Source of the DNA: a virus
DNA: 23,589 nucleotides
Reading direction: 5' to 3' (one strand)
UHGV virus genome: UHGV-0074613
Made by a program: the position numbers and the translations under genes. The notes beneath the pieces are model-generated. The model worked only from the letters and a program-made list of their open reading frames with translations. It was not told the origin of the DNA and did no database searches. This document shows, piece after piece, positions 1,301 through 4,898 of the stretch (position 1 is the stretch's first letter; each line of letters opens with the position of its first letter).

Positions 1301-1561
1301 CTATTTATTCCGATATGCGCAAGATGAGCACCCACAACGGAGTCCATCATTGCACGCTTTACACATTTTATTATCGAGCTGGTGGATGATGTCGGCTGGC
1401 ACCATAACCGGCATTGGAACACGCAGAACCTGAGAACGGAGCAGGGCGATTTCATCTGCTTGCTCCATCACACGGACATAGAGATCGTGCGATTCTGCTT
1501 TCCACCAGGCTACATCAGCTTTAAGGCGGCGCGTACGCCGCTGTTTTAATTTGCTCACCAT
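1301..1561 (-). CDS. Hypothetical small protein with C-terminal Cys cluster
   Basis: Internal ATG (MVSKLKQRRTRRLKADV...) of the 1301..1765 ORF. The longer N-terminal extension overlaps the 245-aa gene and looks non-coding. C-terminal CKACNDGLRCGCSSC cluster. Confidence 0.3.
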   Translation of the reverse strand: MVSKLKQRRTRRLKADVAWWKAESHDLYVRVMEQADEIALLRSQVLRVPMPVMVPADIIHQLDNKMCKACNDGLRCGCSSCAYRNK

Positions 1562-1640
1562 ATGCCATAACCTGTCATCGAAATTAACTGGCACACAGCG
1601 AACATCAATACAGTTATGACAACGACTTTGACTGGAGGCA

Positions 1641-2378
1641 TCATTTCCCCTCCTGCTGCGGTGCTGCTGCGAGCATGGCCTTCCACACAGCAGCATTCGT
1701 ATTCTTGAACAACGCAGCTCTTCCCATTTCCGGCGTAGGCTCAACCGGCACCAACTGCCAACCATCCGGAATTACCGGCGAGTTACCAGCGAGTGCAGCT
1801 CGCACAGCTTCAAATGCGGGAGCAACAAACTCGACATCTTCTTCGCATACCGCGTCGAGGTTATTCAGCGTGTCGCCCATGAATTCCATCGCCTGCAAAG
1901 ACAATGTAAGTGCATTGGTTACGCGTACAGGCAACTTGTAAGGCTGGCTTACACGTTCAACCATATCGCGCTCATTCTCGGAATGGTTGATCATGGCGGC
2001 GCGGCAGGCGTTCCACATATCAGCACCAAGGCACGCAGCGTACTCATCAGGGTTTGATGTTGGCAGGACGCGCTTTATAGCTTCAACGGTTGGCTCCATC
2101 TCATCAGGCACGGATACCGGCGCTGGCGGGGCGGTGTAGAGCTTATTTATGCCATCTGGCAGATTATTAAAATCAAACGTACTACCTGGTATCCTGCCCG
2201 CCTGAGTCCAGTCGTCACCCTCAACAGTGATAAAAAATACAGGCTCGGCTCCCATTGCCGCCAGCGCGATACGCGCCAGCTCTTCAGCTTCTTCTGCCGG
2301 CAGCATAACGTTGCTACTTGGTTCGTATGTTTCGCTCCATGATTGGATTTTCAGAAGCCGTTCTTTGGTGAACTCCAT
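1641..2378 (-). CDS. Hypothetical phage early protein (245 aa)
   Basis: Long ORF with SD GGGAGG 9 nt upstream of ATG; tightly packed in the leftward operon. No recognisable catalytic motif. Confidence 0.7.
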   Translation of the reverse strand: MEFTKERLLKIQSWSETYEPSSNVMLPAEEAEELARIALAAMGAEPVFFITVEGDDWTQAGRIPGSTFDFNNLPDGINKLYTAPPAPVSVPDEMEPTVEAIKRVLPTSNPDEYAACLGADMWNACRAAMINHSENERDMVERVSQPYKLPVRVTNALTLSLQAMEFMGDTLNNLDAVCEEDVEFVAPAFEAVRAALAGNSPVIPDGWQLVPVEPTPEMGRAALFKNTNAAVWKAMLAAAPQQEGK

Positions 2379-2381
2379 TAT

Positions 2382-2612
2382 TTAAACCTCCCACACCTTG
2401 CCACAGGACAGGCATACCGCTTTGCCGTCGTCGCAATCCAAATTGACATGCCCGCACTTTGCAGGCTCTGCGGTCAGCGCTGCCAGTGCGATTTCAAACA
2501 GCGCCGAACATTGGTTTACGTGGACGCGGCCTTCGCCTGTTATCTTCGTGTTGCGGCAAAATTCAATCTGCTCTCGTGCCTTTGCAATTAACTGCTCTTT
2601 GGTGAATTGCAT
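2382..2612 (-). CDS. Hypothetical small protein, zinc-ribbon-like C-terminus
   Basis: 76 aa; CDDGKAVCLSCGK Cys pairs; N-terminus MQFTKEQLI parallels MEFTKERLL of the downstream 245-aa gene; stop/start packing with neighbours. Confidence 0.55.
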   Translation of the reverse strand: MQFTKEQLIAKAREQIEFCRNTKITGEGRVHVNQCSALFEIALAALTAEPAKCGHVNLDCDDGKAVCLSCGKVWEV

Positions 2613-2884
2613 TAAAACCCTCTCTCGAAGCGCTGGGCATCCGCTACGGTAATTTCTGTTTTCGATAGTGCCTGCCGTCCGGCCTCGGTCAATTCGACTT
2701 TATCCCGGACCGAATTAAGGTAAACTGTCTTGATGAGCCCCTTTGACTTAAGGCGTCTGGCAACCGCTGTACAAAGAGTGTCGCTATCGTTCCACCAGTA
2801 ACGGTCGAATTTCCCGCGTAGCATCACCTGGCCTTCACTTATCGCCCGCAGAGTGTTGCGCTGATAATCAGTCAACTTAGCCAT
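2612..2884 (-). CDS. Hypothetical protein (90 aa)
   Basis: ORF in operon register, start overlapping the upstream stop; basic segment ARRLKSKGLIKT may be a DNA-binding helix (speculative). Confidence 0.55.
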   Translation of the reverse strand: MAKLTDYQRNTLRAISEGQVMLRGKFDRYWWNDSDTLCTAVARRLKSKGLIKTVYLNSVRDKVELTEAGRQALSKTEITVADAQRFERGF

Positions 2885-3271
2885 CTATTTACCCTCCACG
2901 GCTACGCCAGCCATTTCCAGTGCCTTACGAACCTGATGCTCAATCTCAGACGCAAATTCTGTTATGTATATTTCGCTATAATCTGGAAGCTTCACCGTGA
3001 GCGTCCGCGCCTCCAGTTCTGCGATGCGCTCTTGCTTGGCCATCGCGTCAGAGCACAAAATACGGTTGCTAACGCGTAGCTCAGCAATCTGCTTATCTCT
3101 GGCTTCCAGCGCCTCTACCAAATCCACTACGTTTGCCGGGCATGCTGTAAGTTGAAACTCTTTAAGAGCGGAGATTCGCTCATCAAAGTGCATAATCGGT
3201 GCTTCACCTGCGTGTTTCGCTTTCAGCGCCGCCGCTTTCATTCGCTGCGCCAGTTCTGTTACATCAGACAT
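2885..3271 (-). CDS. Hypothetical coiled-coil protein (128 aa)
   Basis: Heptad-like Ala/Glu/Leu-rich sequence (IAELRVSN...IAELEARTL); operon register. Confidence 0.6.
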   Translation of the reverse strand: MSDVTELAQRMKAAALKAKHAGEAPIMHFDERISALKEFQLTACPANVVDLVEALEARDKQIAELRVSNRILCSDAMAKQERIAELEARTLTVKLPDYSEIYITEFASEIEHQVRKALEMAGVAVEGK

Positions 3272-3569
3272 TTGTTCCCTCCAGAGCTGCCAGGCGGCGG
3301 CGTAATTCCTGATTTTCGGCCTCAGCGGCTTGCAGTTTTTTGGTCAGGCGGTCATGCCCGTCGACAATTTTGCTCACTTCTCGCACCAGATTTTCCTCGG
3401 CGCACTCTACGGCCTGCCGTAATGCGCGGGTGCTGATAACTCGTTGCGGCAGTTCACACAATGCGTGCATCGGTTTGAAATGCTCGCGTCGAGCAATTCG
3501 GGCGGCGACAATCAGCAGGATGCTTTTTTCTCGCGGTGCCAGTTCTGTTGTCATGCTCATGCTGCACAC
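3264..3569 (-). CDS. Hypothetical coiled-coil protein (about 100 aa)
   Basis: ORF overlapping neighbours by a few nt; C-terminal KKLQAAEAENQELRRRLAALEG coiled-coil. Confidence 0.55.
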   Translation of the reverse strand: MCSMSMTTELAPREKSILLIVAARIARREHFKPMHALCELPQRVISTRALRQAVECAEENLVREVSKIVDGHDRLTKKLQAAEAENQELRRRLAALEGTNV

Positions 3570-4093
3570 TCCAGTTCGTTTAAGCCATCACGTACCGCGC
3601 TAATGATGCGTTCGAGGTATTGGTATTTGTGGTTCGGAACCATAGGCCAGCCGGCATACCAGGAGTCATCGCCAAATAGTCCCAGCAACTTTTCACCGAC
3701 TAGGTAATCGCAGCAGGACGCTTTCACATCGTCAGCATTTTCTGCCTCATACCACATAGAACGGGCTTCTTCGTGGCTAATCTCCAATTGGCGGCGAAGT
3801 CTGAGGATTTCTGATTTCACGAAAATAAGGTTTTCATCGTTATCATCATCAACAGTGCTTTGCAGCTGCGGGTCGAAGTAGCCGATCAGGTACTCGTTGC
3901 TGACGCGTTTAATAAACTCCTGCACTGAATCGCCGCCCATGGCGAACCACGCGCCAGTCCAAGCCTTCCCGTAACAGGTTATGGTGATTCGACCTTTCCC
4001 TGGCTCATAGTTTTCAATCATCACGCGAACCGGGTCGAGGCGCTCCACTTCTGAAATGGTGAACGCCAGCAAGTCAGTTTTTTCGATTTTCAT
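3557..4093 (-). CDS. Hypothetical phage protein (178 aa)
   Basis: Uninterrupted ORF with overlapping start/stop coupling to flanking genes; no motif recognised. Confidence 0.65.
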   Translation of the reverse strand: MKIEKTDLLAFTISEVERLDPVRVMIENYEPGKGRITITCYGKAWTGAWFAMGGDSVQEFIKRVSNEYLIGYFDPQLQSTVDDDNDENLIFVKSEILRLRRQLEISHEEARSMWYEAENADDVKASCCDYLVGEKLLGLFGDDSWYAGWPMVPNHKYQYLERIISAVRDGLNELECAA

Positions 4094-4605
4094 GCTTTCA
4101 CCTCACGAAGATATTGGGCGAATGCTTCTGCCTCTTCTGCAATGGCAAGACTACGTTCGATCCAGACGGTGTTGCCGATTTTGGCTTTCCAGTGTTCGGC
4201 AATTTCACGCTGGTCATACGCGAACTTCTCAACACCCCGCGCCTCGGCTGCACGCAGGATGCCGTCTGTGGTTGGGGTTTCACTCAGCGCGTAGCAAACA
4301 TCATCAGTGCTGCATGGGTCGTCTTTACCGCACACCTCGCAGAAGTGGACTGATTCACTGTGAGTTTGAATGGCAGACTTAAGCGCCATATTCTCAGCAA
4401 CCAACGCCTTCAAATGGTCCTGCAAATCCACGCCATCCGGACAGTTCGTCACTTCACGCGCTTTCTCAAGCGTTGAGTGTGCTGCTGTTAGTTCGCCAGC
4501 CTGACTGAGTTCACGTACCAGATATTCGGCGGTGGTCTCGTTTACCTTCATGTCACCTGGCAAGCATTTGCCGCGCAGGAAACCTTCCATCTCAAATACG
4601 TTCAT
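4090..4605 (-). CDS. Hypothetical phage protein (171 aa), possibly Ead/Ea22-like
   Basis: ORF coupled to neighbours (ATGA overlap). Family assignment is from recollection only. Confidence 0.6.
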   Translation of the reverse strand: MNVFEMEGFLRGKCLPGDMKVNETTAEYLVRELSQAGELTAAHSTLEKAREVTNCPDGVDLQDHLKALVAENMALKSAIQTHSESVHFCEVCGKDDPCSTDDVCYALSETPTTDGILRAAEARGVEKFAYDQREIAEHWKAKIGNTVWIERSLAIAEEAEAFAQYLREVKA

Positions 4606-4898
4606 GCAGCTTCTCCACAGACCATGTTTTTAACCCATACCTGCACATCAATTTCATCTGGGCAGAAGGTGATTTCGCGAATCTTCTCAATGGTGTTCAG
4701 TGCTGCAGTGCGTTCTTCGCATGCCTGGCGAGTAGCAGCCATTGATGCACCGAGACGAGCGGCGGCATGGTTAATCAGTTTCGCTGTATCTTCTGGCAGG
4801 TATTTAGCGGCCTGGCGCATGGCATTAATCAGCTGATCGGTAGTGAGTCGAGCTGGTAACTCCTTCGCGGTTTTATTGTTGTTGAGCTGTGTTTTCAC
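4602..4898 (-). CDS. Hypothetical protein (98 aa)
   Basis: ORF in operon register with start overlapping the downstream gene. Confidence 0.55.
   Translation of the reverse strand: MKTQLNNNKTAKELPARLTTDQLINAMRQAAKYLPEDTAKLINHAAARLGASMAATRQACEERTAALNTIEKIREITFCPDEIDVQVWVKNMVCGEAA

Follow-up and report, generated by a model that had tools for sequence, protein, structure and literature searches.

Gene content of the leftward block

The window analysed here is the whole stretch of 23,589 nucleotides (23.6 kb) of UHGV virus genome UHGV-0074613, which, judged by gene order, profile matches and public gene calls, comprises the left and central portions of a lambdoid prophage. The analysis concerns a block of nine minus-strand genes at 1301-4898, encoding proteins of 98, 171, 178, 98, 128, 90, 76, 245 and 86 amino acids (aa; P9 to P1). 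On the basis of family matches and position, the block corresponds to the exo-xis region of lambda and the ea region of P22. It is probably the promoter-distal accessory part (ea or exo-xis) of an E. coli lambdoid leftward early operon, composed of mosaic genes that offer no compensation for the absence of Exo/Bet/RecET. The features of the block are listed below.

P9, 4602..4898, minus strand: 98 aa, GTG start; open reading frame (ORF) and public gene call
P8, 4090..4605, minus strand: 171 aa, acidic, net charge -13
P7, 3557..4093, minus strand: 178 aa; PF26211 (Phage_phiTE_072) and phrog_3451
P6, 3264..3560, minus strand: 98 aa, small, basic, orphan-like; short heptad stretch near the C-terminus
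P5, 2885..3271, minus strand: 128 aa
P4, 2612..2884, minus strand: 90 aa, basic
P3, 2382..2612, minus strand: 76 aa; a head (residues 2-51) and a Cys segment (residues 53-70)
P2, 1641..2378, minus strand: 245 aa, acidic; head at residues 1-47
Possible hydrophobic peptide, 1555..1644, minus strand: 29 codons (MMPPVKVVVITVLMFAVCQLISMTGYGIW), read from sequence
P1, 1301..1561, minus strand: 86 aa, basic, C-terminal Cys cluster

The P9/P8, P8/P7 and P7/P6 junctions each consisted of an ATGA overlap; P6 and P5 overlapped by 8 nt, the TAG of P5 was followed directly by the ATG of P4 (0 nt), P4 and P3 overlapped by 1 nt in TAATG, and P3 was separated from P2 by a gap of 3 nt. The same gene set had been called publicly on identical metagenome contigs, and a hairpin scan of 1301-4898 identified no terminator-like hairpin on the minus strand. 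An earlier note on this DNA had described a dense, co-oriented leftward run of overlapping or abutting ORFs and had read it as a leftward operon whose small ORFs have no known function; the junctions and the public calls agree with the first description, and the second was also supported, no ORF being assigned to an ordinary housekeeping phage function. Some particulars were amended: there are nine genes rather than eight; P6 has 98 aa (3264-3560) rather than 101; and the ORF of 154 aa at 1301-1765 was an over-call, because phrog_14816 and the public call both start at an internal methionine, which yields the gene of 86 aa at 1301-1561.

Comparison with Klebsiella phage Kp4866-6 showed that P4, P3 and the head of P2 are under purifying selection. 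P4 differed at 47 nucleotides, with a ratio of non-synonymous to synonymous substitution rates (dN/dS) of 0.056; P3 retained 98.7% amino-acid identity, with five synonymous changes and one non-synonymous change (dN/dS = 0.054), while the value for the P2 head was 0.15. The genes of the block are real. The 29-codon ORF occupies the gap at 1562-1640, overlapping the P2 stop through ATGA and the P1 start through ATGGTGA; AGGAGGGG lies upstream of its start and its grand average of hydropathy was 1.56. It matched no family and is not called in public records, but may be a translationally coupled small membrane peptide.

Profiles from PHROGs placed seven of the nine proteins, every matched family being of unknown function; the match for P9 was weak (phrog_14171, E = 2.6e-6). 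Profile searches of the block with Pfam and NCBIfam returned nothing above threshold, and PADLOC found no defence-system match. The Pfam set used did not include the PF26211 model, and the assignment of P7 to that family is a precomputed annotation. Sequence searches of solved structures with P1, P2, P4, P5, P8 and, by profile, P7 gave nothing significant.

The first 126 residues of P8 were 37% identical to a gene of phage Gally annotated 'EaE, similar to P22 EaE', and P2 was 35% identical to 'EaA' of the same P22-like phage, where both labels are the depositors' gene names. P8 and P2 were interpreted from these similarities as EaE-like and EaA-like mosaic proteins, respectively. Separate segments of P8 matched phrog_614, 14548, 492 and 583, and its layout comprises a conserved N-terminus, a short heptad stretch, a CxxC..C..C cluster and a variable C-terminus. 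After its head, P2 is likewise a mosaic of segments that meet near residues 88, 134 and 196-205. More than 5,900 clusters are related to P2, variously named Eaa, DUF551 and DUF550; although many relatives carry DUF551 (PF04448), P2 had no hit to this domain at E <= 0.1, and neither P2, P3, P5 nor P8 was similar to the DUF551 protein of the window (16361-16738). An internal repeat in P2 (residues 91-140 versus 196-245) was rejected, as 241 of 1000 shuffles scored equally. A search of the literature found nothing on the function of EaA or EaE.

P7 was matched by phrog_3451 (E = 4.8e-79), and the PF26211 annotation is attached to the identical protein and to all 120 listed homologues; the family has a single conserved domain and is hosted by prophages of many Enterobacterales, SSU5-type phage-plasmids and Pectobacterium phages. 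P6 had no PHROG, Pfam or NCBIfam family. P5 matched phrog_4838 (E = 2.4e-19, residues 1-91 versus profile positions 2-101 of 234) and also phrog_1138, its N-terminal ~90 residues being common to larger phage proteins; it appears weakly Ead/Ea22-like, and the lack of any hit in the Protein Data Bank (PDB) indicates that it is unrelated to the C-terminal domain of lambda Ea22. P4 belongs to a narrow family of 33 clusters, with 21 invariant alignment positions, which is confined to Enterobacterales prophages and Serratia phage JS26. It had no Pfam, PHROG or PDB match (the last by single sequence and by profile), the best lead being MarR at E = 1.3; a winged helix is an impression given by its sequence pattern. 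P1 was placed in phrog_14816 (E = 9e-34), a match that covered only residues 69-153 of the 154-aa ORF. It ends in a Cys cluster, CxxC-x5-CxC-xx-C, and is the positional analogue of lambda ea8.5, adjoining xis, while having no sequence relation to solved Ea8.5 homologues.

The earlier note had reported a zinc-ribbon-like Cys cluster in one protein and three ORFs rich in coiled coil. Cys clusters do occur, in three proteins (P1, P3 and P8), and none reaches the threshold of a zinc-ribbon family; the best score was that of P3 against Zn_Ribbon_TF (14.9 bits versus a cutoff of 29), where the spacing is C-x6-C-x6-C-x2-C. The coiled coils appear overstated, as the heptad-like stretches were all short and the coiled-coil Pfam hits (P5 and P6) fell below threshold; a crude heptad scan gave p = 0.07 for residues 60-90 of P6 and was not significant for P5 or P8.

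The genes of the block were seen to travel separately. Homologues of P7 in 13 other genomes, from Citrobacter to Aeromonas, had no other block gene alongside them within 6-kb flanks, and when the concatenated block proteins were compared with 50,697 phage records (tblastn), never more than one third of the set was covered. A fusion of P7 with P6 in SSU5, raised by a long tblastn piece, was rejected because SSU5 lacks P6. Given that P7 homologues have no common neighbour, the block was interpreted as a collection of independent genes, each apparently drawn from an independently shuffled mosaic family, and not as a co-evolving system.

Paralogous pairs and the head module of P2 and P3

The N-termini of the adjacent P2 and P3 (MEFTKERLLKIQ and MQFTKEQLIAKA) were 38% identical over 52 aa (BLASTP, E = 1e-5), and their Smith-Waterman score of 56 exceeded the maximum of 46 reached in 1000 shuffles. 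Both heads matched phrog_660, phrog_5117, phrog_60 and phrog_3323. The N-terminal module that had been noticed in these two genes is therefore genuine; its explanation as a local duplication did not hold. The head is instead widespread and promiscuous, and that of P3 is nearer to the heads of other phages (90% identity to that of protein P0028) than to its neighbour's (38%); it is also 90% identical to the head of an Enterobacter ludwigii protein whose tail matches that of P2.

A phmmer search of 1.8 billion representatives with P3 gave 115 hits. In about 100 proteins, ranging from 45 to 461 aa in length, residues 2-51 aligned at the very N-terminus, while the Cys tail (residues 38-76) aligned separately to the C-terminus of seven or eight other small proteins; only about seven proteins resembled P3 over its full length. 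Intact P3-like ORFs were found at 62-93% identity (P0241, P0242, P0244 and P0263). Among the 115 head-bearing proteins, DUF551 was present on 18 and dATP-dGTP_PPHyd (MazZ-type) on 7, with single cases of DUF3850, ASCH, Ead_Ea22 and a zinc ribbon. A protein of a Citrobacter freundii phage-plasmid (L019 2586-3122) joins a P2-type head to a domain of the Lar family (TIGR03655, 42.9 bits versus a cutoff of 39.6), and the Enterobacter hormaechei phage-plasmid p60214CZ_1 (L020 1339-3159) contains three adjacent head-bearing genes. In Kp4866-6 the stretch from P4 through P3 to the P2 head is conserved, and similarity ends exactly at residue 47 of P2. Because this stretch is conserved, the tails are interchangeable and the breakpoint falls at residue 47, the head, which comprises ~47-50 residues and begins hundreds of prophage proteins, was interpreted as a mobile module that is under selection and ends at a recombination junction.

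P8 and P9 form a second pair of adjacent paralogues, which the earlier note did not mention. Residues 38-69 of P8 and 62-93 of P9 were 53% identical over 32 residues (E = 1e-7), a similarity reached by none of 1000 shuffles, and P9 ends just past the segment that it has in common with P8. P8, like P5, resembles larger PHROG families in its N-terminal part only, a layout of constant head and variable tail that is also on record for Ea22 variants.

Recombination genes and Chi sites

Family searches of the early-left region from int to cI (Pfam, PHROGs and NCBIfam) and of the right arm (Pfam) identified no member of the Exo, Bet, RecET or Erf families, which confirmed what had been noticed from the letters alone for Exo/Bet/RecET. 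Between int and cI, nothing recognisable as a strand-annealing protein, exonuclease, SSB or RecBCD inhibitor was detected, and the same was true of the right arm, where the only relevant gene was RusA, in the nin region.

The window contained 17 Chi octamers (GCTGGTGG), between 1090 and 21875, where 0.75 were expected, and none of 100 shuffles reached this number. Sixteen of these lie on the same strand as the rightward late genes and one on the opposite strand; two sites within leftward genes keep the common strand despite being antisense to the coding sequence. Thirteen fall between cI and the terminase genes. Chi was the commonest octamer of all, followed by TGCTGGTG.

Phages with no Rec module and many Chi sites have been described as a class, for which recombination-dependent replication by means of host RecBCD and Chi was proposed; no universally present gene of unknown function was found in their early-left regions (PMC12315714). 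The LLS-type class is defined by an early-left operon lacking any annealing protein, exonuclease, SSB or anti-RecBCD gene, and by at least eight Chi sites in the active orientation and at most six in the other; a further trait of its members is growth enhanced by host RecBCD. Here, such Rec genes were absent and the Chi counts were 16 and 1. The excess of Chi (17 against 0.75) and the co-orientation of 16 sites thus place the prophage, by analogy, in the known LLS-type class (PMC12315714). Further likenesses to that class are the lambdoid gene order, the concentration of Chi in the stretch from the immunity region to the terminase genes, and the identity of the top octamers, Chi and TGCTGGTG being those reported for LLS and P1 (PMC12315714); the early-left genes of LLS and ST64B differ, however, being of the yfbR/yfdQ/yfdP type, whereas another set is found here. 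The recombination genes would be missing because the phage belongs to a class relying on host RecBCD and numerous Chi sites, a reliance assigned by analogy.

It had been suggested that the block fills the place where lambda carries its recombination genes. As a replacement for those genes this did not stand, since the ORFs are the counterpart of the exo-xis or P22 ea genes, which normally lie beside a Rec module. In Gally, for example, the ea genes stand next to RecT-Gam-Abc1.

Setting and interpretation of the block

The order int, ORF block P1-P10 (1301-5326) and cI, all on the minus strand, is that of the lambdoid exo-xis and P22 ea region. The features that flank the block are as follows.

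int, 50-1039, minus strand: distal end of the leftward unit
xis (DUF4224), 1044-1268, minus strand: distal end of the leftward unit; Pfam annotation precomputed on identical public proteins
P10, 5006..5326, minus strand: 106 aa, strongly acidic with a net charge of -16; opens the leftward unit, beyond the coordinates of the earlier note
tRNA-Arg(UCU), 5666-5741, minus strand
Putative pL, 5915..5960, minus strand: TTGCAT-18-TATAGT, below the scanner threshold
cI-like S24 repressor, 6054-6737, minus strand

P10 matched phrog_13002 (E = 3.7e-41); the composition of this protein (106 aa, net charge about -16) is reminiscent of DNA-mimic inhibitors. Beyond cI there follow, in order, a cro-like gene, a CP76/cII-like gene, an O-like replication protein, an MT-A70 methylase, RusA, KilA-N, DUF968/HNH, Q, holins, a GH19 endolysin, TerS/TerL and a protease-capsid fusion. 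Two genes of the nin-like region (9363-10031 and 10205-10558, plus strand) encode an MT-A70 DNA methyltransferase and a protein that contains a DNA-binding domain of LexA type. An int-alpA RNA motif (Rfam RF02996, 41.8 bits versus a cutoff of 35.8) occurs at 16277-16339 on the plus strand, immediately 5' of the DUF551 gene (16361-16738, plus strand); the late region, just ahead of the packaging genes, is an unusual site for both.

Identical copies of the prophage were present on gut-metagenome contigs, and the host flank of one such contig (L001 8400-12738; yeeJ-mtfA-tRNA-Ser/Asn) was 99.9% identical to E. coli chromosomes. The operon was absent from 5,426 complete E. coli genomes and from deposited phages and plasmids, in which megablast recovered short mosaic patches only; the patches nearest to the early-left operon were in Klebsiella, Citrobacter, Enterobacter and Salmonella elements.

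The block would be transcribed from the putative pL near 5915-5960, where an operator palindrome (CTACTTAAAGTAG, 5926-5938) is matched by another between cI and cro (CTACTTATAGTAG, 6799-6811). The 581-nt leader from the putative pL to P10 (5335-5915, minus strand) was unusually structured (z = -7). No nut or put element was recognisable in it, Rfam reported nothing put- or nut-like, and the left and right leaders had no element in common; the single boxA/nut-like match, inside the coding sequence of P5, was rejected, being at chance level (49 of 100 shuffles gave at least one). Other observations on the leader include a sub-threshold DicF-like match at 5592-5643 (18.9 bits versus a cutoff of 48) and a publicly called ORF of 63 aa at 5470-5661 on the plus strand, between the tRNA and P10, which overlaps a leader hairpin and has no family match. 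The tRNA-Arg(UCU) gene itself is part of the leftward leader, downstream of the putative pL and ahead of the first protein gene; in lambdoid phages, tRNAs are more usual downstream of Q.

Among known systems, the exo-xis region of lambda and Stx phages (ea8.5, ea22, orf61, orf63 and orf60a, studied by the Wegrzyn and Donaldson groups) resembles the block in its site beside xis-int, its small packed genes, its constant N-terminus with a swappable C-terminus, its partial duplications and the small Cys-rich protein adjoining xis. The biology of that region, the architecture of Ea22 and the partial gene duplications have been described (PMC10834534, PMC7093339, PMC8614690), and in variants of Ea22 a constant N-terminal part and coiled coil precede a C-terminal domain that can be exchanged (PMC10834534, PMC7093339, PMC8614690). 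The block differs in that no lambda core gene was detectable, in having no DUF1317 or DUF1382 hits, in the sub-cutoff score of P5 for Ead_Ea22, in the unrelatedness of P1 to Ea8.5, and in that no exo gene borders it. In Gally (Lederbergvirus, P22-like), the order is RecT-Gam-Abc1-EaE-EaD-EaA-...-xis-int, and P8 and P2 occupy the matching relative order and orientation. The intervening genes (P3-P7) differ, however; the ea genes of Gally and P22 adjoin a Rec module (RecT or Erf, Gam or Abc), whereas this prophage lacks one, and its virion module is HK97-like with a protease-capsid fusion rather than P22-like.

In this interpretation, nine translationally coupled genes lie between the acidic P10 and xis-int, and the N-termini of P2 and P3 are two alleles of one helical head. 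By analogy with Ea22, and judging from architecture, this head may provide a common oligomerisation or docking function, while the tails may serve as variable effectors which, soon after infection or induction, act on processes of the host (nucleic-acid, defence or regulatory). The genes of lambda exo-xis are non-essential (PMC10695390), and those of the block would, by analogy, be dispensable in the laboratory. Dispensability and modulation of the lysis-lysogeny decision are known for genes of lambda and phi24B only (PMC10695390, PMC7093339), the characterised exo-xis proteins of lambda acting on that decision (PMC7093339, PMC3824215). The absence of Exo/Bet/RecET would be compensated by host RecBCD and Chi, and not by the ORFs of the block.

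Several observations weigh against this interpretation. The leader, which pL transcripts would have to cross to reach the block, contains three terminator-like elements, each a hairpin with a T-run (5829-5862, 5582-5641 and 5345-5362), and no N-like ORF was found between the putative pL and P10. P5 scored 19.2 bits for Ead_Ea22 (PF13935), below the cutoff of 27, and no other ORF matched. None of the tail domains named in the relatives of P2 was found by Pfam in P2 itself, and predicted models of P2 and P7 matched no known fold, so that neither model supports an effector role; the proposal that the head docks and the tail acts is drawn purely from architecture. Finally, the negative result for a Rec module applies to 23.6 kb of the prophage, within which the early-left region from int to cI was covered in its entirety.

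It is rather unlikely that the block is instead a dedicated anti-defence island, in which each early protein inhibits a host immunity system and the head proteins are anti-restriction factors. Lambda Ral and Rac Lar are encoded in the early operon, and the position of the block matches theirs. The fusion of the head to a bona fide Lar-family domain in one relative, and to a MazZ-like pyrophosphohydrolase in others, also accords with such a role, as do the net charges of P2, P7, P8 and P10 (-13 to -19), like those of many DNA-mimic inhibitors. P3 resembles the Lar fusion in its layout, a head with a small Cys-rich tail, but its tail (C-x6-C-x6-C-x2-C) departs from the CPFCG...CxxCG pattern, and P3, P1 and P8 had no hit to Lar (TIGR03655, cutoff 39.6 bits) at E <= 1. 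Moreover, no protein of the window matches Lar, Ral, Ocr/Ard or another named anti-defence family, there was no structural match to known inhibitors, and the exo-xis proteins of lambda affect lysis-lysogeny rather than defence (PMC7093339, PMC3824215).

A related proposal concerns the head rather than the block, and we regard it as doubtful: that head-bearing proteins form an undescribed family of polymorphic effectors in the temperate phages and phage-plasmids of enterobacteria, with a constant docking or oligomerisation module bringing interchangeable tails to one host target at an early stage of infection. If true, the tails would include the Lar ribbon, the MazZ-like dNTP pyrophosphohydrolase, ASCH, DUF551 and Cys knuckles, and the tandem arrays (two genes here, three in the Enterobacter phage-plasmid) would be a diversifiable counter-defence toolkit.

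It seems quite improbable that P3 and P9 have no function and are relics of recombination, illegitimate or homologous, between alleles of the EaA-like and EaE-like types. P3 is indeed little more than a head with a 26-residue tail, P9 stops just after the segment in common with P8, full-length relatives of P3 are few and partial duplications are known in exo-xis regions (PMC8614690); yet P3 has accumulated five synonymous changes for one non-synonymous change relative to Kp4866-6 (dN/dS = 0.054), intact P3-like ORFs persist at 62-93% identity, the Cys tail recurs on other small proteins, and start-stop coupling is intact at both P3 and P9. An unrecognised recombination module replacing Exo/Bet, for instance with P7 and P8 as annealing protein and nuclease, would suit the approximate map position and the several proteins with no known fold, but is highly improbable, given that dense co-oriented Chi is the signature of phages using host RecBCD and that no universal early-left gene of unknown function was found in these (PMC12315714), that P7 travels alone amid unrelated neighbours, phage-plasmids included, that EaE-like and EaA-like genes coexist with RecT/Gam/Abc1 in Gally, and that no fold similarity to Rad52/RecT/Erf/YqaJ-type proteins was found.

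The interpretation of the block as an accessory ea or exo-xis region means that the small ORFs of unknown function 'where Red should be' would be the usual accessory ea block and conceal no recombination system. The region is of an ordinary, known type rather than a new system, and the E. coli prophage would add one more case to a class, defined only recently, whose members leave recombination to RecBCD and Chi. What is mildly interesting about the region is the head module, a promiscuous one whose tails are exchangeable and, in relatives, include an established anti-restriction domain. It would provide a testable handle on the function of the very large EaA/DUF551 group among prophage proteins.

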